Shown here: positions 50,318 through 64,000 of the stretch, piece by piece
Numbering within the stretch: the stretch's first letter is position 1
Layout: each line of letters begins with the position of its first letter
Assembly: GCA_045863235.1 (NCBI GenBank)
Contig: BTUM01000011.1
Coordinates: 61,968 to 125,967, forward strand
Length of the DNA stretch: 64,000 nt
Source of the DNA: Candidatus Xenobia bacterium
Lineage (GTDB): Bacteria; Vulcanimicrobiota; Xenobia; Xenobiales; QWHO01
Reading direction: 5' to 3'
Notes under the pieces: model-generated
Databases searched by the model: none
Seen by the model: only the letters and a program-made list of their open reading frames with translations
Told to the model about the DNA's origin: nothing
Made by a program: the position numbers and the translations under genes

Positions 50318-50449
50318 CCAGGGCGGCGTTGCCGGGTCCCGGCCGCCGCATTTACGCCGTGAGGCGGTGGGGAGCGCTTGATACCGTCAGATGGCCACAG
50401 GCTCCGCCGCGCGGAGGACCAATCCCGGCCGTTTGCCGAAAGGGTTATC

Positions 50450-51955
50450 ATGAACCTCTTGGTAGAGCCGGCCGCTCACCTGGATTTCCTTGCTGCTCTG
50501 CTACCAGGACATACCTTGAATGGCCTGGGGGATGCCCGGGCGGCCCTGTTTTGCCTGGACAGTGGCTCAGCCGAGGAGCTCGAACGCCTGCACCAGTTTT
50601 GTCGTATCCGGCCGACTACGGCCGTGATCGTCGTGGCTCCCGAGCTGAGCGGCGTTGCCCTGGCGAGCCTGCGTGCAAAGGTGAAGAAGAACGGGGCCCA
50701 GGAGGCCCTGACCAGGGCCGAGCTTCCCGTCCACCTTCCCCGCGCACTCGATTACGCGCTCGAGCGTGCAAGCTTGCTGGGTGAACTGGATAGCTGGCGC
50801 CATTCCGAGGACGTGGCCGAGGCGGCCAACAAGCGCGCATCCCAGGTCCTGGCCATGGTGAGTCATGAGATTCGCGGGCGCATGACCGTGATTAACTTCA
50901 TGTCCACCCTGGCAGTGGACGAGCGCACCAAAGAGGAGCGCCGCAGCGAGTGCCTGCGGGTGCTCAAGGAATCCTCCGAATCCCTCCAGTCACTGCTCAA
51001 TGACCTGCTCGACCACGCCAAGCTACTTGAGGGCGAGCTGACTCTGTCCCCCATCGACTTCAACCTGCGCAATCTGCTTGAAAATACGGTGAGCGGCTTT
51101 CGAATCCTGGCCGAGAGCAAAGGGGTCGAGGTGCGCGTGGAGGTCAGCTCGGCCGTGCCCGACTCGTTGATCGGCGACCCCGGTCGCCTGCGCCAGATCC
51201 TCGTCAATCTCCTGGGCAACGCGCTCAAGTTTACCAGCCAGGGGTCGGTGATTCTGAGGGTGGAGCCTGGCGTGCGTTTTTCAGTGAGCGACACCGGAGT
51301 GGGCATCCCCAAACACCTTCATGAGCGCGTCTTCAAGCCCTACGCCCAGGCCGAGCATTCCACGGCACGCAAGTATGGCGGCACCGGACTGGGGCTGACT
51401 ATCGCTTCACGGCTCGTCGAGCTGATGGGCGGTAAGCTCGAGCTTGACAGCGAGCCGGGACGGGGCACCACTTTCTTCTTTACGGCTCAACTCGAGCCTC
51501 ACCCCACTGACCACCCCTCCGTGATCGAGCAGGTCGACCTGGCTGGCCTGCCGGTCCTGGTGGTGGACAGCCACGCACACAGTCAGCGGCACAGCCTGAG
51601 AGCTTTGACCGAGGCTGGAGTGGAGGTCGTAGCGGTCGATGACGGCCATCAGGCCCTTGATCGACTGCGCGAGAAGCACTTCAGGGTGGCCCTCGTTGAC
51701 ATGGTGCTGCCGGACGGGGACGGGTTTCAACTGGCTGAAGAGATTCGGGCTCTGGGCGATGAGACCCGGGTCGTGCTGCTCACTTCGGCTGGCCAGCGCG
51801 GCGACGCAGCTCGCTGTCTCGCGTTGGGTGTAGCAGGATATCTGACCCGCCCGGTTGAGCCAGAAGACCTGCTCGACGCAGTGCGCCTCGTGGAGGCCGG
51901 ATCACGCACCTTGGTGACTCGTCACACTCTCCGGGAGGCGCGTGAGTGCAGCTGA
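50450..51955 (+). CDS. Hybrid histidine kinase (receiver-like N-terminus, HisKA, HATPase, receiver)
   Basis: SHEIR, GDPGRLRQILVNLLGNALKFT, DTGVG and GGTGLGL; C-terminal receiver with DMVLP. Confidence 0.92.
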   Translation: MNLLVEPAAHLDFLAALLPGHTLNGLGDARAALFCLDSGSAEELERLHQFCRIRPTTAVIVVAPELSGVALASLRAKVKKNGAQEALTRAELPVHLPRALDYALERASLLGELDSWRHSEDVAEAANKRASQVLAMVSHEIRGRMTVINFMSTLAVDERTKEERRSECLRVLKESSESLQSLLNDLLDHAKLLEGELTLSPIDFNLRNLLENTVSGFRILAESKGVEVRVEVSSAVPDSLIGDPGRLRQILVNLLGNALKFTSQGSVILRVEPGVRFSVSDTGVGIPKHLHERVFKPYAQAEHSTARKYGGTGLGLTIASRLVELMGGKLELDSEPGRGTTFFFTAQLEPHPTDHPSVIEQVDLAGLPVLVVDSHAHSQRHSLRALTEAGVEVVAVDDGHQALDRLREKHFRVALVDMVLPDGDGFQLAEEIRALGDETRVVLLTSAGQRGDAARCLALGVAGYLTRPVEPEDLLDAVRLVEAGSRTLVTRHTLREARECS

Positions 51956-52015
51956 CGTGATAAGCGCCAAACCCTGCGCCCGGCGGTAAGCGGCGCCCCG
52001 GGACAAGCAGAAAGA

Positions 52016-52717
52016 CTACCCCGCAAGCCTCAAGCTCAGGCGTTCACGCATTTGCTTCAGCGCTCGCGTGTGCAGCTGCGAGACCCGCGGCTCGGACACC
52101 CTGAGCCGGACGGAGATCTCTTTCATCGGTACGTTCTCGAGGTAATACCAGGTCACAATCTGACGCTCACGCTCGGGCAGTTGCGCGATCGTCTTGGCTA
52201 ACTCGCGCTCCGACTCGGCGCGTTCGAACTCGGTTTCCACGCAGACGACGTCGGCCAGTTGCCGGGCCGGGCTGCCGTCCGGCCGTTCGGCATCGAACGA
52301 CTGGAGGAAGCTGCTGGCCAGATCCTGGCGGCGCCGGTCCACCTCTGCCGGGCTCAATCCAAGCTGCTCGCCCAACTCGCTGTTGTCGGGTTGACGACCG
52401 AGCTGTTGCAGCAGTTTCTCGTCCGCTCTCACCAGGTCATGGCAGCGGCGGCGGCCCGGACGACTCATCCAGTCCTGAGCCCGCAGCGAGTCCAGCATGC
52501 TGCCCCGTATCCGTGAGGAGGCAAATCGCATGAGTGATCCGCCCCGGGCGGGGTCAAAGCGACGCTCGGCCTCGAGCAGGCCCACGTAACCATCCTGGAC
52601 CAGATCCTCCCGGTCCAGCCCGCAGGGCAGGTGCCGGGCCAGCTTGCGAGCCATTCCCTCGACCATGGGAGCGAAGTGGAGCAGGGTCTGGTTGGTCTCG
52701 GTCTGGAGCACGCTCAT
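52016..52717 (-). CDS. FliA/WhiG-family sigma factor (sigma28-like)
   Basis: DLVQ.G..GL..A..RFDP, RIRGSMLDSLR..DW and MKEI...L.VSE.RVSQLH; GAGGAGG RBS. Confidence 0.92.
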   Translation of the reverse strand: MSVLQTETNQTLLHFAPMVEGMARKLARHLPCGLDREDLVQDGYVGLLEAERRFDPARGGSLMRFASSRIRGSMLDSLRAQDWMSRPGRRRCHDLVRADEKLLQQLGRQPDNSELGEQLGLSPAEVDRRRQDLASSFLQSFDAERPDGSPARQLADVVCVETEFERAESERELAKTIAQLPERERQIVTWYYLENVPMKEISVRLRVSEPRVSQLHTRALKQMRERLSLRLAG

Positions 52718-52815
52718 GGCGGTGACCTCCTCGAATTCGTTCTCATGAGCTTGCATTGACTGTCCCGTGGCCGGGCACTTGTGCCCGGGTCCAACTGGAG
52801 GGCTGGCCCGGGGAG

Positions 52816-52833
52816 GGTAGGGAGATCCCTACC
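52816..52833. promoter_or_regulatory. Perfect palindrome between divergent sigma genes
   Basis: GGTAGGGA-GA-TCCCTACC. Confidence 0.55.
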
Positions 52834-52927
52834 AGAGTGGGGGGAGAGCCTGCGAGAGGAGGCAGGAGGTGCCCGATGTCACCGTACCCCGCAGGCGCGT
52901 ATCCTGAGGTCAGGAGGTGAACGACCG

Positions 52928-53611
52928 ATGAAGCCCTGCTGGAGTCTGAAGACCGATGCCTGCGCCACCTGCCCTCTGCGATACCTCAAGAGTGTCGCCG
53001 GGACGTGCTGCCGCGCCGCCCGACCCACTGACGAGTTGCGCGCTCTGCAGCTCGACCTGCTCGACCGGGCGCGCCGCCAGGAGCCTGCCGCGATCGACGA
53101 GCTGATGGCCGGGTACGGCTGGTTGGTCGAGCACATCAGCCGAGGCTACTTTCTCCCAGGTGCAGAGCGCGAGGACCTGCTCCAGGAAGGCCGTCTGGGT
53201 CTGTGGGAGGCCGTCTGCAGCTTTGACGCGGCTTACGGTCGACCGCTGGGAGTGCACATCGCCATGCAGGTGCGCAACCGCATCCTGCAGGCCGTGCGCA
53301 CGGCCACTCGAAAAAAACACTCTCTGCTCAGCGAGGCTACCCCGCTTGAGGGTCTGCAGAGCCCGCCCGGCTCGGAGGATGGCGAACCTACCGTCGTGCT
53401 CACCGAGGATCTGGTTCGCAGGCTCAGCCACCACTTGCACGAGCGGCTCTCGGGCCTGGAGCTCAGTGCCCTGGCAAGCCGCCTGGGGGCAGGTTCCGTG
53501 GAGGACGTGGCGCGCCGCCAGCAGGTTTCCTCGCGCCAGGTGGAAAACGCTCTGTTCCGCGCCAGGCAAAAGGCAAGACAGGCCTTGATGCAACTCGGGC
53601 AAGCCGTCTGA
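52928..53611 (+). CDS. SigH (Firmicute sigma-H)-like sigma factor with Cys-rich N-terminal extension
   Basis: YFLPGAEREDLLQEG..GL..A...FD, AVRTATRKKH.LL and VENALFRA; AGGAGGTG RBS. Confidence 0.85.
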   Translation: MKPCWSLKTDACATCPLRYLKSVAGTCCRAARPTDELRALQLDLLDRARRQEPAAIDELMAGYGWLVEHISRGYFLPGAEREDLLQEGRLGLWEAVCSFDAAYGRPLGVHIAMQVRNRILQAVRTATRKKHSLLSEATPLEGLQSPPGSEDGEPTVVLTEDLVRRLSHHLHERLSGLELSALASRLGAGSVEDVARRQQVSSRQVENALFRARQKARQALMQLGQAV

Positions 53612-53624
53612 GAGGAGATAGACC

Positions 53625-54125
53625 GTGAATCTCGAGGATCTACCCGATCAGGCCGTGCTCCTGGATGCCTCGGGGCAGGTCGTGACGGTCAACCGACTCT
53701 GGACCGAGGCCGCCGGTCGCTATCAAGGCCTCGGGGTGAGGCCGGCTCCTGGAGAGAGCTATCTCGAGGCCCTGCGGGGACCAGACCCGAGCCTGCTTGA
53801 AGCGGTCGAAAGCGTCCTGAGCGGTCGGGCCACCCGCGCGACCTTGGAATATAGCTGCTTTGAGGAGCTCGAGCGTCGCCACTTCATGGCCCTGATCTGG
53901 CGGCTTGGAGAGGAAACCGTCGCCCTCCACCAGGATGTCACTCCGGCTGTGTCCCGGCGTCGTCGCTGGGCTCACGAGGTGAACAATAGCCTGACCGCGC
54001 TCATGTGCTACTTGAGCCTGGGCATGCCGATGCTGGACCCGGGGTCGGCCGCCCGCGAGCACCTGGTCCCGGCCGAGGAAGCCGCCCGCCAGCTGCTCGA
54101 CCTGGTCAACCAGCGCCCCAACTGA
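53625..54125 (+). CDS. PAS plus HisKA(DHp)-only protein, no ATPase domain
   Basis: LLDASG.V..VN..W PAS fold ending HQDVT, then WAHEVNNSL; ends at 166 aa; AGGAGA RBS. Confidence 0.72.
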   Translation: MNLEDLPDQAVLLDASGQVVTVNRLWTEAAGRYQGLGVRPAPGESYLEALRGPDPSLLEAVESVLSGRATRATLEYSCFEELERRHFMALIWRLGEETVALHQDVTPAVSRRRRWAHEVNNSLTALMCYLSLGMPMLDPGSAAREHLVPAEEAARQLLDLVNQRPN

Positions 54126-54143
54126 GGGGAGTGACGGAACCGA

Positions 54144-55205
54144 TCAGGAGAGGCTGGCGCGAATCTCGATGAGTGCGGGCAGCGAAGACATGAACGCGTC
54201 CACCACCATGCTATCGAAATGCTTGCCGCGACAGCGCTCGAGCTCGGCCACCGCTTCCTCGACGGGCCAGGCTGCCTTGTAGGGCCGGGGGGAGACCAGC
54301 GCGTCGAACACGTCGCAGACGGCCACGATGCGGCCGTGTAGCGGGATGGCCTCGCCGGAAAGGCGGGCCGGGTAGCCGTTGCCATCCCACTTCTCGTGGT
54401 GGGTCCGGGCGATCACCTCGGCCGCCTGAAGCAAGGGAACGTCGCTGCCGGACAGGATGGCGGCTCCGATCAATGTGTGGGTCTTGATGACCTCGAACTC
54501 CTCGGGCTCGAGCTTGCCAGGCTTGAGCAGGATGGAATCGGGAATGCCCACTTTGCCGATGTCATGCAGGGGGCTGGCCAGGCGAACCAACTCGCACTCC
54601 TCGGGGTCGAGACCGAGCCGTGAGGCGACGATCCCGGCATACTCGCCCAACCGCCGGGTATGATGGCCCGTGTCGTCGTCGCGGTACTCGCAGGCCAGGC
54701 CCAGGCGTTTGAGGATCTCGTGGTGAGCCCGGATGATCTCGCCGGAGCGACGCAGCACCTCCTGCTCGAGTGTCTCGCGCTCGTGCTCGGTACGCACGTA
54801 GAGGCGTCGAATCTGGAGCATGTTGCGCACTCGGGCCACCACCTCGACCGGCAGAAAAGGCTTGGCCAGAAAGTCGCGTGCGCCGGCAGTCAGGGCTCGC
54901 ACCCTCTCAGAAGGATCGTTCATGCCCGTCAATACCAGGATCGGTGCGTAGCCGTCGGGCTCGAGCTCGGTCCAGGTCTGCATGAGCTCTTCCCCGCTCA
55001 GGCCCGGCATGGACAGGTCGAGAACCACCGCATCAGGGTTGTAAATCTGGTAGAGGTCGCGGGCCTGAAAGGGGTCACTGATGCCGAGCACGTTGCGAAA
55101 GCCGGCCCGGTGGAGAATGTCAGTGAGCAGCTTGACCAGAGATTCGTCGTCATCCACAACCAGGACACGTCCGTTCTGGTCATCACCAGCTTGAATCGCC
55201 AACAT
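54144..55205 (-). CDS. Response regulator with HD-GYP phosphodiesterase domain (RpfG-like)
   Basis: Receiver (VVDD, LDLSMP, KP); TGHH, LHDIGK, HHEKWDGNGYP and DVFDAL. Confidence 0.95.
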   Translation of the reverse strand: MLAIQAGDDQNGRVLVVDDDESLVKLLTDILHRAGFRNVLGISDPFQARDLYQIYNPDAVVLDLSMPGLSGEELMQTWTELEPDGYAPILVLTGMNDPSERVRALTAGARDFLAKPFLPVEVVARVRNMLQIRRLYVRTEHERETLEQEVLRRSGEIIRAHHEILKRLGLACEYRDDDTGHHTRRLGEYAGIVASRLGLDPEECELVRLASPLHDIGKVGIPDSILLKPGKLEPEEFEVIKTHTLIGAAILSGSDVPLLQAAEVIARTHHEKWDGNGYPARLSGEAIPLHGRIVAVCDVFDALVSPRPYKAAWPVEEAVAELERCRGKHFDSMVVDAFMSSLPALIEIRASLS

Positions 55206-55233
55206 CACACACCTCCTCAAGAATGCTCGCTCA

Positions 55234-57510
55234 TCACGTCGCACATTGCAGACAGTGACTCACCGCGTCCAGGACTTGTTGGGGTACGTATGGTTTCGGC
55301 AGAAAGTGGACCCCCTCAACTTCGTCATCAGAGTGGGCCAGTTCCTCGCGACTGTAGCCTGACGTGAGCAGAACCCGCAGGTCGGGGCGGTCTGCCCGCA
55401 GCACTCTGGCCAGCTGGCGCCCGGACAGATTGCCGGGCATCACCAGATCGGTGAGAAGGAGCTGAATCTCCTCGCGATGCTGCTGCCAGACCCGAAGGGC
55501 GGCTGGCCCCGAGTCTGCTCCCAGCACTCGGTGGCCCGCGCGGGTCAAGATGCGCGTAATCAAGGAGCGAACGCGCTCGTCATCCTCGACGAGAAGGATG
55601 GTGTTGGCCCCATCGGTGGGGGTGGTGGCTTCGGGAGCGTGGGCCGAGGATGCGAGCATGGTGACCTGCCTTGCAGGCGACGGGGAGCTGGCGGTCAGGG
55701 CCGGGAGATGGACCTCGAACGTGCTGCCCTGGCCCGGTTTGCTCGTAACCAGCATGAAGCCCTCGTGCTGCTTCACGATGCCGTAGACGCTGGCCAGGCC
55801 CAGGCCGGTGCCGCGACCGACCTCCTTGGTCGTGAAGAAGGGCTCGAAGATATGCTCGAGGTGCTCGGGGGAGATGCCCGTCCCGCTGTCCTGGACCCGA
55901 ATGACCACGTAGATGCCGGACCGGGCTCCCGAATGCCCTGCCGCTTGCTCTTTGTCCAGCTCGACCAGGCCGGTCGCCAGAGTCAACCGTCCCCCTCCCG
56001 GCATTGCATCGCGGGCATTCACTGCCAGGTTCAAGACGATCTGGTCGATCATCGAGCGATCAGCCCGCACCGGGGGAAGGTCGCCGGCCAGCTGCAGCAC
56101 GATCTCAACGGTTTCTCCCAGGGTTCTCTCAAGCAACCCGGAAAGCTCTTTCAGCACATTCGAGATGTCCAACTCCACCGGTTCGATGAGCTGGCGTCGT
56201 CCGAACATGAGCAGCTGACGGATGAGCTGGGCGGCCATGTGCGAGGCCTGCAGGGCCTCGCGCAGCAGGTCGGAATCTTCCGCCTTGATCGTCGGGGAGT
56301 GCCCGGCGATGGCGAGGTTGCCCTGAATGACCGTCAACAGGTTGTTGAAGTCGTGGGCCACTCCTCCGGCAAGCTGGCCGATTGCCTCCATCTTCTCGGC
56401 CTGGCGAAGGCGGTCTTCCAGGGCTCGATTGATCTCCTCGGACTTCTTCAAGTCGGTCACGTCGAGCACGAATCCCACCACTCGCTCGGGGCGACCGGAG
56501 GCATCGCAGGAAGGGCGCCCGGCGCGATTGGAGAGCCAGCGCACCTCCCCGCAGGCCAGCACGACCCGAAACTCGCTCTCGCTGGCCTGTCTGGAGCTCA
56601 TCGCATTCCGGGCTTGGAAGCCGACCCGCTCGCGGTCCTCAGGGTGCACGAGATCGGTGAGGAATTCGAGGGACGGGGGGGATTCGGTCAGCTTCAGGAG
56701 CTTGAGCAACTCGGCCGACAAGTAGAAGCTCCCCTCTTCGAGGTTCCACTCCCACACCCCCATGCGGGCTTCCGAGAGGGCCAGATGAAAGCGCTCGTTG
56801 ACCTCCTGGAGAGCCTCCTGGGCCATCTTGACCGGCGTGATGTCAGTGGCCACGCCCGCCACCCGATATACCTGGCCCGACTCGTCATGCACGGCAAAGG
56901 CCCGGTCGCGAAGCCACCGCACCTCGCCGTCTGGTCGCACGATGCGATAGATCTCATCGTAGTCACCCGATGCCTGACGCTGCACGGCCAGCTCGATGCG
57001 GTCACGGTCCTCGGGGTGTACCAGGTCCAGCCAGGAGCGAGGAGATGCGAGCAAGCTGGACACGGCCTGACCCCAGATAGCCTCGTAGGCGGGGCTGACG
57101 TAGAGCATCTGCTCCTTGCTCACGTCGGTCAGCCAGAACACCTCCCCCACGTTCTCCGCCAGCTGGCGAAAACGAGCCTCGGCCTCGCGAACGACGGCCT
57201 CGGCCTCCTCGCGCTGGCTGATCTCGCGCCGCCAGCGCGCTTCCATGGCGCCCACCGTGAAATAGAGCAACAAGCTGGTGAGCCAGACGAAGCCGAACCC
57301 CTTCCAGGTCTGCATGGATGCCTCCAACTCAGGGCTCTCGAACCCCTTGACCAGCCAGTCGGAGCAGGCGATATAGGCAGTCGCCGCCAGAAAGTAGACC
57401 ACCGCCAGTCGGGCCGCAGCGTACTTCCCGAATCGGGCAGAGCTGGTGAAGGAGTTCTTCCTCGTCGAGCCCATGAAAGTGTGGATCACCGCGCCGTCAG
57501 TGGGCGACAT
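55234..57510 (-). CDS. Membrane hybrid sensor kinase (two TM, two PAS, HisKA/HATPase, receiver)
   Basis: [36 protein letters not shown]; receiver TDLVMP. Confidence 0.95.
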
Positions 57511-57556
57511 TGCTTGCGCATGCCTTCCAGTCTAGACCAGGGGTCTCAACCGGCAA

Positions 57557-58243
57557 TCAACGTTTGACGGCCAGAACCAACCAGTCCTGATCGGCGTAAG
57601 TGCGGCCGAGCTCGACCGTCTCGAAGCCACTGGCTTCGAGAAGACCGCGTAGCTCCTGGGGCCCGAAGAAATGATAAGTGCGCTGGCGGGCCCGGGACAA
57701 GATGGCAAAGTTGAAGAGCAGCACCAGGACCAGGGCTGGCAAGAGAGCCAGAAAACGGGCCCGGTGGCGCCAGCCGCGAGCCAGCTGATCGGTGACCAGC
57801 GCGCCCAGACGGAACTCGGAGGCGGGCGTGGCCAGCACCAGGCGCCCACCAGGCTTCATCACGCGGCCCAACTCGCCCAGCGTGAAGGCAGGCCGGGGCA
57901 GGCTATAGAGAACGTTGGAGGAAACGATGGCGTCGAACCACTGGTCGGGAAAGGGGAGCGGGCCATCAAGGTCGACCAGGGCCAGTTCCGCCCAACGCCC
58001 GCGCCTGGCTGCGCGCTCGAGCATGGCCGCGCTGGCATCCAGCCCTGTAACCCGGGCGGTGGGGCAACTTTCCTGCACTGCCCGGGTCACCTGACCCGTG
58101 CCGCACCCGGCGTCCAGAATGTGTTGCAGGCTGCAGGGGGCGAGACGGTCGACGAGGTCACGAACCAGCTCGCGATAGGGCTCGAGCTGGCACAGCGAGT
58201 CATACACCCGGGCGTAGGCGCTCCAGAAACCAGGCCAGGACAA
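57557..58243 (-). CDS. Class I SAM-dependent methyltransferase
   Basis: ILDAGCGTG, GLDAS..ML, LPFPD..FD and RVMKPGG; start taken at TTG 58243. Confidence 0.88.
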   Translation of the reverse strand: MSWPGFWSAYARVYDSLCQLEPYRELVRDLVDRLAPCSLQHILDAGCGTGQVTRAVQESCPTARVTGLDASAAMLERAARRGRWAELALVDLDGPLPFPDQWFDAIVSSNVLYSLPRPAFTLGELGRVMKPGGRLVLATPASEFRLGALVTDQLARGWRHRARFLALLPALVLVLLFNFAILSRARQRTYHFFGPQELRGLLEASGFETVELGRTYADQDWLVLAVKR

Positions 58244-58339
58244 ACAGGCGTTCCCTTCTGTTGATTGGGGCGTCTTGACGCGGCGTTGAGGGGTATCGGC
58301 TAGGGTAAGCGGGTGAAAACCCAGCCGGGAGGCCCGACG

Positions 58340-60025
58340 ATGACTCCTCCACCCGAAGTCGCCCGAATCGCACTTTGCATCCGCGAGCTGAACGAAATTG
58401 AGCTGCCTCAGTACTTCGCTCTGCGCCGGGAGGTCTACGCTCGCTCGGGCTACCTTCCTGCCGGGGGGTCGGGTCTGGACGTGGATCCCTTCGACTGGCG
58501 TTGCCGTTTCCTGGGAGCCTTCCTGGACACCGGGGAAAGCCAGCGCCTGATAGGGGGAGCACGATTGATCACCGAGTCTCCCGGGCCCCTCTCTGAGGCC
58601 GTCGAAGGATTGGCCGGCCCAGACCTGACGCGCGCCGAGAGCGGTTTTTTTGCCGAGCGGATCTTCCAATTCCGGCCTCAGCTGGAAAGGCGCCTGTACC
58701 CGGGTCAGCGACTGGTGGAGTTCGGGCGCACGGTCTGCCGCGAGGAGTACCGCAGCTTCGGGGTGGGCAAGGCCCTGGTGCTCGGGTTGCACGGCCTGGC
58801 ACTGAACCTGGGGGCGGCGTACGGCATCGCCTGCGCACCCGCTCACCTGGTTTCCTTTTACACGAGGCTGGGTGGCATGGTGCTCAACCAGGCTGCCACC
58901 TTACACCAGGACCTGACAGTCAAAGCGGTTCCCTTGCTCGTTGACCTGACCCGGGCCGCCAGCGCCTCGCTGGAGGCCCACGAAGCAGCTCGCCGGCTCC
59001 GCGCCGGAGGGATGCTCACCCTGATGGGCGACCCGGGCCAGTTGCGCCCCCGGGGGGAAGAGCCGGTTTGCCTCCTGCGCAACGACCTGTCCCCCCAGGA
59101 CGTCCCCTACGACTGGACATCGCCCGAGCTGACCCTGAGTCATCTGAGTCACCCCGTCAATCTGCACGACGAGACGCTGCGCGACGGGCTGCAGTCAGCC
59201 TCGGTGCGCCACCCGGACATCGTGGGCAAGCTGGAGATCTTGCACGCCATCGCCGATCTGGGCGTGGGCAGCGCCAACCTGGGCATGCCCGGGGCAGGAG
59301 GAAAGGTGGCCGCCGACGTGCTGCGGCTGGCCGAGGAGATTGCCGAGCAGAACCTGCCGCTGGTGCCCTGCTGCGCTGCGCGCACCTGCCAGGCCGATCT
59401 CGACCCGCTGCTCACCATCCTCGACCGCACCGGAGTACGCCTGGAAGTCGGGCTCTTCCTGGGCTCGAGCCGCATCCGCCAACTGGCCGAGGGATGGGAC
59501 CTGGACCACCTTCTGCGCCTGACCGAGGAGTGGGTGGGCTATGCAGCGGATCGGGGGCTCGAGGTCATGTTCGTGACCGAGGACACCTGCCGAGCCGATC
59601 CCGAGCACCTGCGTCGGCTGTACAGCACCGCCGTTGACCGGGGGGCACGTCGAATCTGCGCCACCGACACCGTCGGGTGCGCCAGTCCTTACGGGGTAAC
59701 CGCCCTGATTCGATCTCTGCGCTTGATGGTCGGGCCCCGAGTGGCCATCGACTGGCACGGCCATGGTGATCGGGGGCTGGGAGTGCCCAACAGCCTGGCG
59801 GCCCTGCTTGCTGGAGCTGATCGCGTGCACGCCACCGCGTTAGGTATCGGCGAGCGCTGTGGCAACACCCCCATGGAGCTGATGCTGCTGCATCGAGCCC
59901 GGCACACAGGGCAACCCTGGGTGGCCGAACGAGTGCAAGGCTACTTGAACACCGTTGCCCGCGAGCTGGAGCTGGAGAGCCCGCCTGCGTGGCTATCCCC
60001 CGAACTGGAGGTGCTCCCGGTTTGA
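58340..60025 (+). CDS. Fusion: LuxI/FeeM-like GNAT acyltransferase plus DRE-TIM (LeuA/homocitrate synthase-like) catalytic barrel
   Basis: N-terminus LRREVY...D.DPFD...IGGARLI...VEFGR...FYTRLG; C-terminus HDETLRDGLQ, EDT.RA, DTVG, WHGHGDRGL and GIGERCGN; GGGAGG RBS. Confidence 0.85.
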   Translation: MTPPPEVARIALCIRELNEIELPQYFALRREVYARSGYLPAGGSGLDVDPFDWRCRFLGAFLDTGESQRLIGGARLITESPGPLSEAVEGLAGPDLTRAESGFFAERIFQFRPQLERRLYPGQRLVEFGRTVCREEYRSFGVGKALVLGLHGLALNLGAAYGIACAPAHLVSFYTRLGGMVLNQAATLHQDLTVKAVPLLVDLTRAASASLEAHEAARRLRAGGMLTLMGDPGQLRPRGEEPVCLLRNDLSPQDVPYDWTSPELTLSHLSHPVNLHDETLRDGLQSASVRHPDIVGKLEILHAIADLGVGSANLGMPGAGGKVAADVLRLAEEIAEQNLPLVPCCAARTCQADLDPLLTILDRTGVRLEVGLFLGSSRIRQLAEGWDLDHLLRLTEEWVGYAADRGLEVMFVTEDTCRADPEHLRRLYSTAVDRGARRICATDTVGCASPYGVTALIRSLRLMVGPRVAIDWHGHGDRGLGVPNSLAALLAGADRVHATALGIGERCGNTPMELMLLHRARHTGQPWVAERVQGYLNTVARELELESPPAWLSPELEVLPV

Positions 60026-61062
60026 TACCCTTCGAATGCAATCGCCCGGTACTGTTGGAAGACTGCACCCTGGCCCTGACGCAACTCGACCGCGAGCAGC
60101 AGCTCGATCACCTGGCCAACCTGGCGCTTCTCGGGGTTGGACGGGTTGAGCTGAAGCCGGGGCCAGATCTGGCCGTACTGGTGGAGGAGTGCGCCGAGCT
60201 GGGACTGACCGCGGTGGTCTGCCTGGCGAACGCGGCCGCCCTGGAAGAAACCCTGATGCCGGGGCTCGAGGTGCGGGTGAGTCCGGCGCTGCTGCCGACA
60301 GCCCGGGAGCGGCAACTGCCCTGCTGGCTGGTGCTGTCCGGGGCGGGGCAGATCTCTCCGGCTGCCCTGGCCCGGGAGTTGACGAGGGCCCGCGACCACC
60401 AGGTGCTGGGGGTCTGCATGCAGGACGAGCTGGGCGTGGCTACCCCCGATGGGGTGTTCCGCCTGGGCGCTTTCTGCCGCAACGCCCAGGAGGCCCTGGG
60501 AATGCAGATCGAGATTCTCTGGAGCCAGCGCGATACAGAAGGAACAGGGATCTACGGAGCGCTGCAAGCCCTGCGCTCGGGTCTGAGCGGCGTGCGCTGC
60601 GCCGGCCTGGGGCTGGGGGGCATGATCGCTCTCGACACGCTCTTGCTCAACCTGGTGCTGGAAGGGCTCTGGTCCGGCCCCACCGAGGCTCTCAAGACCT
60701 GCTGCGCCCACCTGGTGGAAAGCCTGGACCTGCGGCTGCCGGCCAACTATCCCCTGGCTGGCCGGGACGCCTTCTGCACTTCCACAGGCGTGCATGCCCG
60801 GGCGATGCAGAAGGCGCTCCAGATGGGCCAGCCGGCACTGGCGGACCAGGTCTACAGCGTGGTGGCTCCGGGGCGATTCGGCTTCTCTCACCGCATCGAG
60901 GTAGGCCCCTTGTCGGGGCGCTCCAACGTGGAGTGCTGGCTGATGGAGCGCGGACTGAGCGCGTCGCCCAAGACGGTCGGTCGGATTTTGGAGAGGGCCA
61001 AGGCCCACTATCGTTCCCTGGACGATCAGGAGATTCTCGCCCTGCTGGAGGACCGCTCATGA
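60022..61062 (+). CDS. Degenerate DRE-TIM barrel plus LeuA-type C-terminal helical subdomain
   Basis: Catalytic motifs lost (EDCTLAL, no HxH); retains NYPLAGRDAF.TSTGVHA, VYS.V.P..FG and IEVGPLSGRSNV; TTGA overlap. Confidence 0.78.
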   Translation: MIPFECNRPVLLEDCTLALTQLDREQQLDHLANLALLGVGRVELKPGPDLAVLVEECAELGLTAVVCLANAAALEETLMPGLEVRVSPALLPTARERQLPCWLVLSGAGQISPAALARELTRARDHQVLGVCMQDELGVATPDGVFRLGAFCRNAQEALGMQIEILWSQRDTEGTGIYGALQALRSGLSGVRCAGLGLGGMIALDTLLLNLVLEGLWSGPTEALKTCCAHLVESLDLRLPANYPLAGRDAFCTSTGVHARAMQKALQMGQPALADQVYSVVAPGRFGFSHRIEVGPLSGRSNVECWLMERGLSASPKTVGRILERAKAHYRSLDDQEILALLEDRS

Positions 61063-62045
61063 CCCCTGCCAACCTTCTGCGCACTCGCTTTGGCTACATC
61101 GCCGCCCGAGCCATTGGAGTGGCGGTCGAGCTCGACCTGTTTACCCGGATGGCGGAGGGTAAGGCCAGCCTGCACGAGTTGTGCCTGGCGACTCGCTCTT
61201 CCGAGCGAGGCCTGCGCGCCCTGCTCAAGGCTCTGGTTCCGCTGGACCTGGTGCGCGAGGACCGTCCTGGCCATTTTCAGACCAGCCCGGAATCGGAGCG
61301 CTACCTGGTCAGCCACTCCCCCCACTACCTGGGAGGAATGATTCGTCAAGCCGACCGGCTCTGGGAGCGCTGGGGCCGGCTGGGCGAGGCGGTGCGCAGC
61401 GGACTTCCCCCCGAGGCCGGTATCGAGTCGAATGAAGATGACGGGAGGTTCTTCTCGGAGTTCGTGCAGGGGCTCTACAACCTGAACGCTCCCGCCGCCC
61501 GCGAGCTGGCCCGTGAGCTGGCCCGCTTCGAGCCAGCGCGGGTGCTGGACGTTGGAGCCGGGAGCGCGGTCTGGAGCCTGGCATTGGTGGCCGAGCGCCC
61601 GGCCACGCTGGTCACCGCGCTGGACCGCGAGCGGGTGCTCGAGCAGGTGACCCGAGCTTACGTGCGCGAGCACGGGGCCGAGAATTATTATAGTTTTCTT
61701 GCTGGCGACCTGCGCGAGTCGGAGCTTGAGCCGGAAGGTTACGACCTGGTCATCCTGGGCCACGTGCTCCACTCGGAGGGGAGGGAGGGCTCGCGAAGGC
61801 TGCTCGCGCGAGCCTTTCGTGCCCTGCGCCCGGGAGGGGCTCTGGCCGTGGCCGAGGTGGTGCCCGATGCCGAGCAGTCTGATGTTTATTCCTGGCTCTT
61901 CGGGCTTCACATGCTGCTGCTTACGACCGAGGGCGACGTGTTCGAGGCCTCCGAGCTGGAGGCCCTGGTGGGCGAGGCGGGCTTCGGCGCCCTGCGCTGG
62001 CCGGAGTTGCCCGGGCCCTACGCGGTGCTGCTGGCGCGGCGCTGA
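61059..62045 (+). CDS. O-methyltransferase (Methyltransf_2 with dimerisation domain)
   Basis: AVELDLF, RVLDVGAGSA, FLAGD, GHVLH and ALRPGG; ATGA overlap. Confidence 0.92.
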   Translation: MTPANLLRTRFGYIAARAIGVAVELDLFTRMAEGKASLHELCLATRSSERGLRALLKALVPLDLVREDRPGHFQTSPESERYLVSHSPHYLGGMIRQADRLWERWGRLGEAVRSGLPPEAGIESNEDDGRFFSEFVQGLYNLNAPAARELARELARFEPARVLDVGAGSAVWSLALVAERPATLVTALDRERVLEQVTRAYVREHGAENYYSFLAGDLRESELEPEGYDLVILGHVLHSEGREGSRRLLARAFRALRPGGALAVAEVVPDAEQSDVYSWLFGLHMLLLTTEGDVFEASELEALVGEAGFGALRWPELPGPYAVLLARR

Positions 62046-62049
62046 AACA

Positions 62050-63999
62050 TCAGGACACGTTCACCGGGAGGCGGCCAGTCGCCGCGGGCTCGGGTGGCTC
62101 CAGGCCCGTGGCCTCGAGCCAGGCTCGACGGAAGCGCTCCGACTCGCGCAGTGACCCGGCAAGGTCGCCCAGGTGGTTGAGACACTCGAGCATGCTCCCG
62201 GAAGCCTTCTGGTCGAGGGGCTCGAGCGCGAGGAGCCGGCGATAGCGGGCGACCGCCTCGCCAGGTCGTCCCTCGTGACGATCTTGCTCGGCCAGGAACG
62301 TCAGCAGCTCGCGGAACCGATCGCGCAGCTCCTGGCGACGCTCGCTGATGAAATCGAGGTAGAGATCGTGGGCCAGAAAGTCACCGGTGTAGAGCCGCTC
62401 GGCCCGCAGCATGCGGGCGGTGGCTCGCTCGCGATCCCCTTGCTTGCTGGCCTGCCAGCCTTCCTGCACCAGGCGCTCGAACTCCATCACGTCATAATCG
62501 ACCAGCCCGTTCAGGTCGAGCCGGTAGCCGGTGGCGGTGCGCTCGAGCTCGATGCGATCGCCGGCCACGCTTCGGAACATGCGGCGCAGCAAGGAAACGT
62601 GCTGGGCCAGGCTGTGGCGCGAGCGGTCGGCCGGATAGTCAGGCCAGAAGCACTCCAGGGCCTGGTCGGTAACGATCGTGAGGTCTCGCGAGCAGAGGAT
62701 GTACTTCAGCAACTGAGCCAGCAACGAGCGCTTCAAGTCGGTAAGTTTCTGCGGCATTCCATCGGCGATGATCTCGAGCCCCCCGAAGGCCCGGATGGAG
62801 ACGCTCCCGATGGGTCCCAAACTGCGTTGGAGGGCGTAACCAGCGGCCTCCCGCACGGTGCGAGCGGGGTCGCCCTGCACCAGGCGTCGGAGGATGCGCT
62901 CGGCCCGAGGAGAGCTGAGGCTGCCCAGTAGCACGGCCGCCTGGCGGCGCAGTGTGTATCGCGGCTCGTCGAGCACCGGCTCGATCTGGTCCAGAACGCA
63001 GTCACCCATGGACTGGAGGATCCCGATGGCAGACTGGCGGTGCTCGGCCAGTTCGGTGGCCTGCAAGAGAAGTCCCACCGACAGTTGCCAGGGATCGCTG
63101 CGCCAGAAGTCCTCGTAGCCGTGCTCGCGCATGAGCGTGAGGGCCCGTTCCAGGGAAGGACCGGGACCGGGCTGGGCTGCGGCCAGGACCATGTGGGCCT
63201 TCATCTCCCAGTAGCTCGAGCGGGCCTGCGCGGCCAGGCCGAGAGCCCGCTCCAGATAACAGGCCGAAGGCTCGAGCTGGCCTGAGCGAAGCTCCAGGTA
63301 ACCCAGCGCGCACAGGCACTCGGGCGCATACAGGCCGTAGCCATTGAGGTCGAGCACACGCAGCATCTCCTCGCCAGCCACCCGGGCCTGCTCGGTGGCC
63401 CCGGTCAGCAGGGAGAGGAGCATGCGATTGCGGTAGTACCAGGGCTTGAACTGGGCTGGAACGTGGTTCTCGGAGATGCTGGCCAGCAGGCGGGCGGCCT
63501 GGGCCAGCTCATTGCGCTCCAGGCAGACCATGGCTCTCAGGTTCTCGAACCCCTTGGCGACGTAGACGTGCCCGGCGCGATTTGCATTGACCCAGACATC
63601 CTCCACCAGTTCTCCGGCCGTCGAGAGCTGGCCCGCCATAATCAGCACCAGGGCTTTGTTCATAGCCAGCTGGTAGATGACCAGAGCCCAGTTTTTGCGC
63701 CGAAAGAACTCGATTCCCTCGCCCAGTACGGCCAGCGCCTCGGAGAAATTCCCCTGAGGGAAATGATAGGCGAACCCGTAGGCCAGGCAGGCCCAGGAAA
63801 TGGCGCGCGGGTGGCTGCACGCCCAGGCCAGGGCGTGGCTTTCGGCCATGAGGAAGTAGCCGCGCTCGAAGTCGCGGCCCGAATAGACCAGGGTGGCCCC
63901 AAGCAGGGAGCCCAAGATCGAGCGCATGGCGTTGTCGGAGGGCCCGCATTTCTGATGCGTGTCAAGAGAGAGACTGCGGAGGCCGTAACCACGCGAGTT
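62050..63999 (-). CDS. Large TPR/HEAT plus winged-HTH/BTAD (SARP-like) transcriptional regulator, 5'-truncated
   Basis: IRAFGGL, FWPD, GYRL....DYDV.EFE and LYTGDFL BTAD motifs; frame is open to the window edge. Confidence 0.85.
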   Translation of the reverse strand, partial: NSRGYGLRSLSLDTHQKCGPSDNAMRSILGSLLGATLVYSGRDFERGYFLMAESHALAWACSHPRAISWACLAYGFAYHFPQGNFSEALAVLGEGIEFFRRKNWALVIYQLAMNKALVLIMAGQLSTAGELVEDVWVNANRAGHVYVAKGFENLRAMVCLERNELAQAARLLASISENHVPAQFKPWYYRNRMLLSLLTGATEQARVAGEEMLRVLDLNGYGLYAPECLCALGYLELRSGQLEPSACYLERALGLAAQARSSYWEMKAHMVLAAAQPGPGPSLERALTLMREHGYEDFWRSDPWQLSVGLLLQATELAEHRQSAIGILQSMGDCVLDQIEPVLDEPRYTLRRQAAVLLGSLSSPRAERILRRLVQGDPARTVREAAGYALQRSLGPIGSVSIRAFGGLEIIADGMPQKLTDLKRSLLAQLLKYILCSRDLTIVTDQALECFWPDYPADRSRHSLAQHVSLLRRMFRSVAGDRIELERTATGYRLDLNGLVDYDVMEFERLVQEGWQASKQGDRERATARMLRAERLYTGDFLAHDLYLDFISERRQELRDRFRELLTFLAEQDRHEGRPGEAVARYRRLLALEPLDQKASGSMLECLNHLGDLAGSLRESERFRRAWLEATGLEPPEPAATGRLPVNVS

Positions 64000-64000
64000 T

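Follow-up and report, generated by a model that had tools for sequence, protein, structure and literature searches.

The closest described relatives of the gene cassette analysed here are FeeM and the type I N-acyl amino acid synthases (PF21926; PDB 2g0b), which include those of the NasY clusters of stieleriacine and thalassotalic acid producers (PMC12479983). The cassette lies at the end of a 64,000-nucleotide stretch of DNA from a Candidatus Xenobia bacterium (assembly GCA_045863235.1, contig BTUM01000011.1, positions 61,968 to 125,967), hereafter the window, and comprises a fusion protein (P0001) of an acyltransferase (GNAT) domain and a DRE-TIM barrel, a second DRE-TIM protein (P0002), two methyltransferases (P0003 and P0004) and a regulator (P0005). 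Its GNAT has the Pfam family, the fold and the Tyr/Tyr/Glu pattern in common with FeeM, and methyltransferase neighbours, as here, recur together with ThiF in the wider FeeM-type family. It differs in being 17% identical to FeeM, in carrying a LuxI-like Arg130 where FeeM has Gln97 (a mapping by motif), in its fusion to a DRE-TIM half and in its pairing with a dedicated STAND-SARP regulator. FeeM-type synthases take acyl groups from a cognate acyl carrier protein (ACP); a simple pattern search showed no ACP motif in 11 cassette loci, where a housekeeping ACP could serve. The LuxI/LuxR systems with CoA-dependent synthases (BjaI, MesI and RpaI, of which RpaI uses aryl acyl-CoA according to the title of PDB entry 6wn0) have the same fold, and there too the synthase lies beside a regulator with a box in its promoter; in the cassette, however, Tyr33/Tyr38 stand for Phe27/Trp33 of LasI, the regulator is not a LuxR protein, and a methylase accompanies the synthase. 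Pairs of a LuxI homologue and a sensor kinase in the Candidate Phyla Radiation (Bernard et al. 2020, PMC7567580) likewise place a LuxI-like gene beside a sensor, with aromatic substitutions at F29/W35, whereas in the cassette a one-component activator in the cytoplasm, for which an operator is predicted, takes the place of the sensor, and a precursor module is added.

The DRE-TIM Claisen enzymes HphA, isopropylmalate synthase (IPMS), homocitrate synthase (HCS), CimA and MAMS share with the cassette pair the DRE helix, HxH, Glu, Thr and the lid His/Tyr, and the pair has alanine at the position of HphA A73; its M/V/C pocket is its own, and barrel and lid are divided between paralogous genes. In clostridia, NifV-alpha reportedly matches the N-terminal part of HCS and NifV-omega the C-terminal part. 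This homocitrate synthase is likewise encoded by two adjacent DRE-TIM genes (gene names from PMC6429469), but here one half is fused to an acyltransferase, and the split is presumably independent given that subfamily and pocket differ. The regulator has the ATPase-arm-TPR N-terminus of MalT, with a SARP module in place of the LuxR helix-turn-helix (HTH), and shares the wHTH-BTAD module and 11-bp direct repeats with AfsR/EmbR-type SARPs, its CGTTGA resembling the CGTT(T/C)ATCG of AfsR (PMC10972967). What is new, judging from sequence, is the cytoplasmic STAND-SARP partner with its predicted operator, together with the fused half-enzyme. In a search of the open-access literature, no paper was found that describes this architecture or a route to benzoyl-CoA through benzylmalate, although supplements may list such loci. 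The cassette is predicted to pair a signal or aminolipid synthase with a one-component regulator and a predicted operator, both of which most orphan FeeM-like genes lack, and this unannotated locus from an almost uncultured phylum leads to three separate predictions.

The acyltransferase, the adjacent regulator and the predicted promoter box

The five open reading frames and the plus-strand operon of three genes, headed by the acyltransferase::DRE-TIM fusion and joined by TTGA and ATGA overlaps, are all present as the initial annotation described them. P0001 (58340-60025; Pfam FeeM 38.1 bits against a cut-off of 27, HMGL-like 133.8 against 29) is followed by P0002 (60022..61062) and P0003 (61059..62045), and the GC and GC3 values of the cassette genes are like those of the adjoining kinase gene. 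A profile search with the GNAT domain found matches in 10 of 401 genomes of the phylum, and the cassette context rests on these 10. In all of them a convergent regulator of ~1,100-1,150 residues faces a GNAT, including G041 and G046, where in the latter this holds for one of two paralogues. Among the 40 genomes of the order, regulator orthologues (E<1e-60) occur in exactly the 8 that have the GNAT, always adjacent to it. It is clear that GNAT and regulator are inherited together and side by side, that the box described below is conserved with them, and that their co-location is far beyond chance. The proposal of a regulated small-molecule cassette without PKS/NRPS genes, plausibly a signal system, is therefore borne out as far as conservation and co-localisation in relatives are concerned.

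The class I methyltransferase P0004 (57557..58243, minus strand; Pfam Methyltransf_11) is divergent from the operon, as had been claimed, and in 7 of the 10 genomes a methyltransferase of its type stands in divergent orientation to the GNAT. Its position is taken in G041 by a B12 radical-SAM gene, and one of the G046 GNATs follows such a gene. The DRE-TIM pair occurs in 7 of the 10 cassette genomes, the GNAT being unfused in G017, G041 and G046, while P0003 is found in none of the cassette loci of nine relatives. Based on these counts, the core consists of GNAT, regulator and methylase, and the rest is accessory. In G025, the flanking genes match those of G013 and a methyltransferase remnant and the box are kept; no GNAT or regulator match was found there. 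Fusions of GNAT and DRE-TIM are known from 7 genomes and, beyond these, from at least 16 proteins. All 80 loci returned by a metagenome scan for further fusion loci hold the unfused parent gene, which limits the cassette context to the 10 genomes.

The GNAT domain (58340..59014, plus strand; assigned from Pfam FeeM and fold) was modelled over residues 1-227 with a pLDDT of 92.4. Its best structural match is FeeM (2g0b; Z 16.9, root-mean-square deviation (rmsd) 2.8, 170 aligned residues), followed by TofI (Z 15.6), RpaI (Z 15.3) and then LasI, these three ranging over Z 14.8-15.6; Foldseek places the CoA-dependent MesI and BjaI first and FeeM next. Residues R29, Y33, Y38, D49, D52, R75, E127 and R130 are invariant in 9/9 genome GNATs, and D52, R75, E127 and R130 are kept in all 50 wider homologues. 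Y33, Y38 and E127 match the active-site Tyr27, Tyr32 and Glu94 of FeeM (PMC9654057, Table 1), in a mapping made by motif and not by superposition. The LuxI family model PF00765 gave no match to the domain at E 0.1, and the Phe/Trp pair that binds S-adenosylmethionine in LuxI is absent, Tyr/Tyr standing there instead. The charge network of LuxI, which we take to be Arg, Asp, Asp, Arg, Glu and Arg, is represented by R29, D49, D52, R75, E127 and R130, so that by motif the Tyr/Tyr pair is FeeM-like and the ExxR LuxI-like. Enzymes of this family form amides, and the product of the GNAT is likely to be an N-acyl amide.

The GNAT keeps its catalytic residues where the DRE-TIM part is absent (G017, G041, G046) or catalytically dead (G004, G013, G019, G023), and for this reason the DRE-TIM product is not an obligatory acceptor. 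Twenty-two of the 31 closest GNAT representatives at 50% clustering are at most 309 residues long, some of which may be fragments, and in a quick tree some of the stand-alone GNATs are placed within groups of fusions, a sign of secondary loss. Three short homologues came from a word-index search, and a full HMMER scan gave 1,355 at E 0.001. Many proteins of 340-450 residues (P0157, P0158, P0166, P0172 and similar ones) combine a C-terminal FeeM-like domain with an N-terminal part of 120-190 residues that has no Pfam match in the seven scanned.

The convergent BTAD regulator of the initial annotation is indeed convergent and does contain BTAD, but it is not a plain BTAD protein. P0005 (62050..63948, minus strand; Pfam BTAD, TPR_MalT, HEAT and wHTH) is the 3' part, from about residue 480 onward, of a ~1,120-residue MalT-type STAND regulator of the order ATPase-TPR-HEAT-wHTH-BTAD, the 5' part of which lies at G000:C2:252454-253923. 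In profile searches the N-terminus matches MalT (E 9e-79) and the C-terminus AfsR/EmbR (E 4e-21 / 2e-16). The MalT equivalog is matched with 259.6 bits against 537 and over the N-terminal 553 residues only, and the C-terminus is wHTH-BTAD, not a LuxR HTH; this SARP module is C-terminal, unlike in Streptomyces SARPs. Walker A and B are invariant in the full-length orthologues, and the TPR block is conserved, with invariant aromatic and polar residues.

The first ~480 codons of the regulator end contig C2, and the remainder starts at 63948 on contig C11, whose end coincides with that of the window. Both contig-end tails are multicopy, the C2-side tail being found at 8 other contig ends and the C11-side tail at 5 others, with a TGC core (63946-63948). 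The last stretch of the window (63949..64000, minus strand) is the right end of this insertion sequence (IS)-like element, and if the element formed a circle, the TTGACA of its right end and the TATGAT of its left end would be joined, with a spacing of 17 bp, as the -35 and -10 of a junction-type promoter. The regulator is interrupted in this assembly by an IS-like insertion, probably of the IS110 type; IS110 transposases exist in the genome, unlinked to these ends, and the body of the element was not found in the assembly. A search for an IS-free regulator allele, in contigs of 4 runs that do not resolve the C2/C11 junction, found none. The element also stands at the starts of C11 and C33 and at the ends of C6, C9, C20, C55, C72, C85, C112, C113, C123, C147 and C165, and at C11 and C33 its variant left end abuts a sequence resembling a tRNA T-loop.

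Upstream of the operon, the predicted activator box and -10 element (58261..58306, plus strand) comprise TTGA half-sites at 58261, 58275 and 58286 and a TAnnnT hexamer at 58301-58306. The pattern T(T/G)GA-N7-(T/C/A)TGA-N11-(T/C)AnnnT precedes the GNAT in 9 of the 10 genomes (58275-58306 here) and in 6 genomes is also found on the divergent strand. The half-sites at 58275 and 58286 are 11 bp apart and at a fixed distance from the -10-like hexamer, and the 8-nt gap to the latter fits SARP promoters. The classical SARP site is an 11-bp repeat overlapping the -35 region (PMC5930380, PMC10972967). The repeat, first seen by eye and then tested, was reached per region in at most 1 in 2000 shuffles, and its density is 19 sites in 209 kb of cassette-related loci; other loci of the same genomes gave none in 174 kb, and loci of other phyla gave 3 in 527 kb. 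The whole 8.36-Mb genome holds 33 matches, 10 of them strict, and 3 of these 10 are at the locus, namely before the GNAT, before the neighbouring kinase/HD operon (57529-57560) and on the C2 side. When this genome is left out of the training of the matrix, the box before the kinase operon takes rank 5 in the whole genome. Sites outside the defining set stand before the G041 regulator, beside the G017 regulator, on the C2 side and before the kinase. The remaining strict matches in G000 (C1:202657(+), C1:215593(-), C15:73599(+), C15:41(-), C16:48822(-), C101:25909(+) and C137:200(-)) are a possible regulon, several of them at contig ends or before unknown genes.

The regulator is thus predicted, with good probability, to activate the GNAT promoter. 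Several points tell against this prediction: the pattern comes from these very upstream regions; when the matrix is trained on the other genomes, the GNAT box of this genome ranks only 39th of 173; with two other spacings the genome holds 13 and 23 matches, compared with 10, the median of 41 controls being 1; at least 7 other BTAD proteins of the genome might bind the box; and no convincing box was seen in G046. A plain k-mer search of upstream regions gave nothing above the level of shuffled sequences, the start coordinate of this genome being 33 nt off in that search. A reading of the box as an ordinary sigma-70 -35 element was rejected, as the -10-like hexamer follows the starts of the half-sites by 26 and 15 nt, and a consensus scan found no sigma-70 promoter for the operon.

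Outside the phylum, the subfamily of P0004 adjoins or is fused with a FeeM/LuxI-like GNAT in 16 of 50 loci (two of them weak), compared with 0 of 29 loci of generic methyltransferases used as control. P0004-type enzymes are fused to a FeeM-like GNAT in two Patescibacteria and one Methanosarcinales archaeon, and to ThiF in two other bacteria (L085:5890-7260, L090:5962-7254, L103:3510-4862, L102, L106). P0004 itself, a predicted tailoring enzyme, has a conserved hydrophobic helix (residues 164-182). The O-methyltransferase, which the initial annotation counted as part of the architecture, does not belong to it. P0003 (Pfam Methyltransf_2 and Dimerisation, an O/N/S-methyltransferase whose closest solved proteins are RedM, MfnG, DsyB and ASMT) is a copy of an unlinked family found in 18 of 44 genomes of the class and has a 42% paralogue on contig C25. 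It is found at the same place in contigs from other samples of the same species, and it is a species-level addition outside the conserved cassette.

The DRE-TIM pair and its predicted substrate

The DRE-TIM barrel of P0001, the A half (59156..60025, plus strand; assigned from homocitrate synthase alignments, a residue table and a fold match to 6ktq with an rmsd of 1.8), keeps R281, D282, Q285, E414, T444, H473 and H475, and the protein ends before the C-terminal lid. P0002, the B half (HMGL-like 16.4 bits only, with sub-threshold HMGL-like/HCS_D2), has lost the metal and keto-acid residues of its barrel but retains the lid, with His258 and Tyr278, and this lid can be aligned to the one in Thermus homocitrate synthase. 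The DRE helix, HxH, Glu and Thr are thus found only in P0001, and the lid His and stacking Tyr only in P0002; what had been annotated as a dead partner carries exactly the lid missing from the fused barrel. In MAMS, the H388A lid mutant is inactive and His388 stacks on Tyr399 (PMC11532901), and the C-terminal domain completes the CoA site of the adjacent monomer (PMC8468904). The predicted complex of P0001 and P0002 scored 0.89 against 0.00 for the best of three controls, a mark that 51 of 78 solved complexes and 2 of 108 mismatches reach; the runs agree in at least 95% of contacts, the pLDDT of the partner is at least 87, and His258 and residues 276-280 of P0002 lie in the interface. The P0001 barrel and P0002 very probably form a heterodimeric two-subunit enzyme, against which it has to be said that the score may reflect mere likeness, because solved DRE-TIM homodimers are similar. 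The predicted half-site heterodimer offers a clean way to study a lid His/Tyr acting in trans. For annotation it is a warning that a LeuA paralogue of this 'dead' kind can be a subunit on which the enzyme depends.

Besides the cassette pair, the host carries a housekeeping A/B pair on contig C49 and a single whole gene on C51. The housekeeping pair (G000:C49:33148-35549; L040:9149-11553), with orthologues in 14 relatives, is a LeuA-like tandem split into barrel-only and lid-only genes in several Xenobia families, the gene being single in other lineages. In all 15 housekeeping pairs examined, a count that leaves out the pair of G031, A has an intact barrel without the lid His and B a dead barrel with a G-x-His...Tyr lid; the 'His' that some fused A proteins show in the lid column comes from misalignment of their C-terminal tail. 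None of the 80 metagenome loci of the parent family, 40 of which are shorter than 6 kb, holds two copies, and in 79 of the 80 the lid motif is in the same reading frame as the barrel. In a quick IQ-TREE analysis all A halves group together (SH-aLRT 97), as do all B halves (98), and the cassette copies fall inside the Xenobia A and B clades, from which it follows that the cassette pair is a duplicate of the housekeeping pair. This tree leaves out the degenerate fusions P0130, P0131 and P0139, the G013 and G023 cassette barrels and the short G013/G023 cassette partners, and seven truncated partner pieces were replaced in it by whole genes.

Of the seven cassette pairs, three are intact in both halves and four have lost both barrel and lid residues; at least two genera contain dead pairs as well as intact ones. 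Catalytically dead fusions that are full-length and in frame are found in 4 of 7 genomes and in 5 of 16 further database proteins, and the dead barrel of G004 has kept 79% identity to an intact relative. Among the four dead cassettes, three have a partner shrunk to 182-306 residues, while in the 6 cluster members of the present species all catalytic residues are kept. As a duplicate of the housekeeping pair, the cassette pair would only boost precursor supply, which would explain its repeated loss.

The positions that set substrate selectivity are A73/D157/A159/M186 in HphA, His/Arg/Thr/Ser in HCS and Leu/Glu/Ser/Asn in IPMS, the HphA A73 position being mutationally the most important (PMC12961565). 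In P0001 they are A346/M410/V412/C440, mapped without aligning HphA itself and giving one identity (Ala) to HphA in four, and the same Ala-Met-Val is found in the housekeeping A halves and the parent family. To judge from these residues the pocket is roomy and non-polar. The His/Arg/Thr-Ser set with which HCS binds 2-oxoglutarate is absent (A346/M410/V412 instead), LeuA is set apart by the A/M/V/C pocket and by a best NCBIfam score of 139.9 against 517 bits, and the barrel lies below all DRE-TIM NCBIfam cut-offs. Among the 80 parent-family loci, IOR-alpha occurs in 7, a PaaK-like ligase in 3, LeuC/D in 3 and LeuB/IDH-like genes in 13; two such loci annotated gene by gene contain IOR, LeuC/D, CoA ligases and genes like those of the benzoyl-CoA pathway. 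In the C51-type paralogue Ser/Thr replaces Met410, and the gene is coupled to 4-hydroxybenzoyl-CoA-reductase (Hcr)-like genes and, in G019, adjoins a benzoyl-CoA-reductase (Bcr)-like cluster; a preference of the C51 enzyme for the 4-hydroxy substrate is predicted. The host itself has a LeuD-C fusion, a LeuB (above its NCBIfam cut-off) followed by 3-hydroxyacyl-CoA dehydrogenase, crotonase and thiolase, and also LysA, prephenate dehydratase and a Bcr-like cluster. On balance, and by a small margin of confidence, we consider it probable that the pair elongates aryl-pyruvates, in which case a widespread LeuA-like family annotated as isopropylmalate synthase may do the same. A role as Re-citrate or homocitrate synthase was rejected, given that the host has four Si-citrate-synthase matches and LysA and the pocket is without basic residues; no LysX match was above cut-off.

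As a separate observation, genes of this DRE-TIM family are accompanied by those for IOR, a PaaK-like ligase, LeuBCD and beta-oxidation and by ones that resemble (4-hydroxy)benzoyl-CoA reductase genes (G000:C51:8794-13762, which is L041:5794-10762, and L032, L165 and L216; G000:C32:15942-19988; G000:C41:63683-70523). These neighbourhoods are a possible trace of an unrecognised Phe/Tyr degradation route via one-carbon elongation. In Desulfococcus multivorans, the conversion of phenylacetate/phenylpyruvate to benzoyl-CoA has been called unclear; IOR and a CoA ligase are induced there, as are a dehydrogenase, a hydratase and a thiolase (PMC5109826).

Predicted product and competing readings

The reading that we favour, which falls just short of being probable as a whole, is that a regulator-switched GNAT and methylase make a methylated N-acyl amide signal, for which the A/B enzyme supplies an aromatic block. 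The MalT/SARP-hybrid regulator would switch on GNAT and methyltransferase through the tandem TTGA repeats. The P0001 barrel would bind the metal and a 2-oxo acid, and the residues strongly suggest that P0002 lends His258 and Tyr278 across the dimer, with one active site per A/B pair. The pair may join acetyl-CoA to a 2-oxo acid that is bulky and non-polar, of which phenylpyruvate is the likeliest, giving 2-benzylmalate, and the LeuD-C fusion and LeuB of the host could finish the elongation to 2-oxo-4-phenylbutyrate. From there, homophenylalanine could be formed as amine acceptor, or 3-phenylpropionyl/cinnamoyl-CoA as acyl donor. The GNAT would form the amide and the class I methyltransferase methylate it, P0003 presumably adding a further methyl group in this species. 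The most likely product is accordingly an N-acyl amide that is methylated and contains an aromatic part, rather than an acylated alkylmalate. The step with the least support is the last, in which the TPR region of the regulator would sense the product and close a positive loop like that of LuxI/LuxR. The TPR region of MalT binds ligand, and it is by this analogy that sensing of the product is a possibility, on the doubtful side of even. Given the IS-like insertion in the regulator, such a loop is probably broken in this assembly.

The most far-reaching version would be a new class of quorum-sensing circuit in Xenobia, with an aryl-homologated methylated N-acyl amide, a fused heterodimeric benzylmalate synthase and a MalT-SARP reader that also controls kinase and cyclic di-GMP genes, and with a parent enzyme that marks an unrecognised Phe/Tyr route to benzoyl-CoA through one-carbon elongation, decarboxylation and beta-oxidation. 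In this complete form it is unlikely.

Other results weigh against the favoured reading. In the pocket, M410, V412 and C440 differ from D157, A159 and M186 of HphA. The aromatic neighbours are found in a minority of the parent loci, the counts being without a background control, and the Bcr and Hcr matches are below the NCBIfam cut-offs. Thirty-four of the 50 loci of the P0004 subfamily show no GNAT, and the cassette of G023 has neither a P0004-type methyltransferase nor a B12 radical-SAM gene. Most of the cassette genomes are kin, with 5 of the 10 from one genus.

The alternative that survives best retains the chemistry without the signal loop: the regulator would answer to an unrelated cue, and the product would be an antimicrobial, a surfactant or a membrane aminolipid N-acyl amino acid. 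FeeM-type synthases are known for long-chain N-acyl amino acids that act as antibiotics and surfactants (PMC12479983), NAMEs resemble N-acyl homoserine lactones (AHLs) yet stay outside AHL signalling (PMC11580390), SARPs are ordinary pathway activators (PMC10972967), and the hydrophobic helix of P0004 suggests a lipid-like substrate. Nonetheless, the box precedes the G041 regulator itself and, here, the kinase/HD operon, which suits a signalling output, the conserved TPR block has its invariant aromatic and polar residues, and LuxI-like genes recur beside sensor kinases in other phyla (PMC7567580). This makes the alternative unlikely, while leaving it ahead of the remaining ones.

It would be improbable, in turn, for the A/B pair to be an extra isopropylmalate synthase for aliphatic elongation, with the GNAT using a branched acyl-CoA as BjaI does isovaleryl-CoA. 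The pair and its paralogues are the only LeuA-like genes in the host, alongside LeuB and the LeuD-C fusion, databases name the family 2-isopropylmalate synthase, and Foldseek ranks the CoA-dependent MesI and BjaI first; but the pocket is without the Leu/Glu/Ser/Asn set of IPMS (PMC12961565), G025 has a canonical leu operon in addition to the pair, and the host genome, which is 97.6% complete, gave no IlvC, IlvH or IlvD match. The persistence of dead full-length fusions, with the G004 barrel so similar to its intact relative, is what would be expected if the pair served in the cassette mainly as a metabolite sensor or scaffold gating the fused GNAT, catalysis being optional. The shrunken partners and nested stand-alone GNATs are as expected of decay towards loss, and the full set of catalytic residues in the species' own cluster members also speaks for an enzyme, so that we regard this as quite improbable. 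The acylated, methylated alkylmalate/citrate-type product of the initial annotation, acylated by the GNAT and methylated by both methyltransferases, has the recurrent domain fusion and translational coupling in its favour and is nevertheless very improbable, given that the GNAT is intact with DRE-TIM absent or dead in 7 of 10 genomes, that most of its closest representatives, fragments possibly among them, are short, that its fold neighbours are N-acyltransferases and that the O-methyltransferase is not conserved.

Neighbouring genes and occurrence

The second predicted activator box (57529..57560, minus strand) precedes an operon, likewise on the minus strand, of a PAS-PAS hybrid histidine kinase (55234-57510) and a REC-HD (HD-GYP-like) response regulator (54144-55244), both assigned from Pfam and both candidate outputs of the regulator. 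This operon (54144-57510) is not kept at the same place in relatives. It forms part of a dense signalling island (50378-57510) with a hybrid kinase, FliA-like and ECF-like sigma factors, a small PAS/HisKA protein, the REC-HD regulator and the PAS hybrid kinase.

Named homologues place the host among Vulcanimicrobiota/Xenobia. DNA of the locus was found in activated sludge and wastewater, in 18 runs from 14 studies (one possibly the source), and in this habitat signalling affects floc and biofilm behaviour. The operon is covered by contigs from RNA runs of 3 studies (for example 58328-60544 and 60528-62733); the flanks are covered too, and these contigs may be DNA. In two of them coverage is low or missing at 57674-58007 within P0004, which is a weak hint only.

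In four genomes of one genus, a protein of ~175 residues with no Pfam match (two copies scanned) adjoins the cassette (L023:11924-12460, L024:7708-8244, L027:13415-13939, L028:2225-2746), and in G017 and G023 it is preceded by the box. G031 has two tandem copies of the regulator (L023:1217-8084), the second as two adjacent matches, possibly due to a frameshift. In G046, ThiF-family, B12 radical-SAM and FeeM-like genes stand together (L030:1588-5822), and two more FeeM-like genes are present (L221:6064-7631; L222:4803-6253), one of them followed by a ThiF-like match, as in acyl-oxazolone/N-acyl tyrosine clusters.

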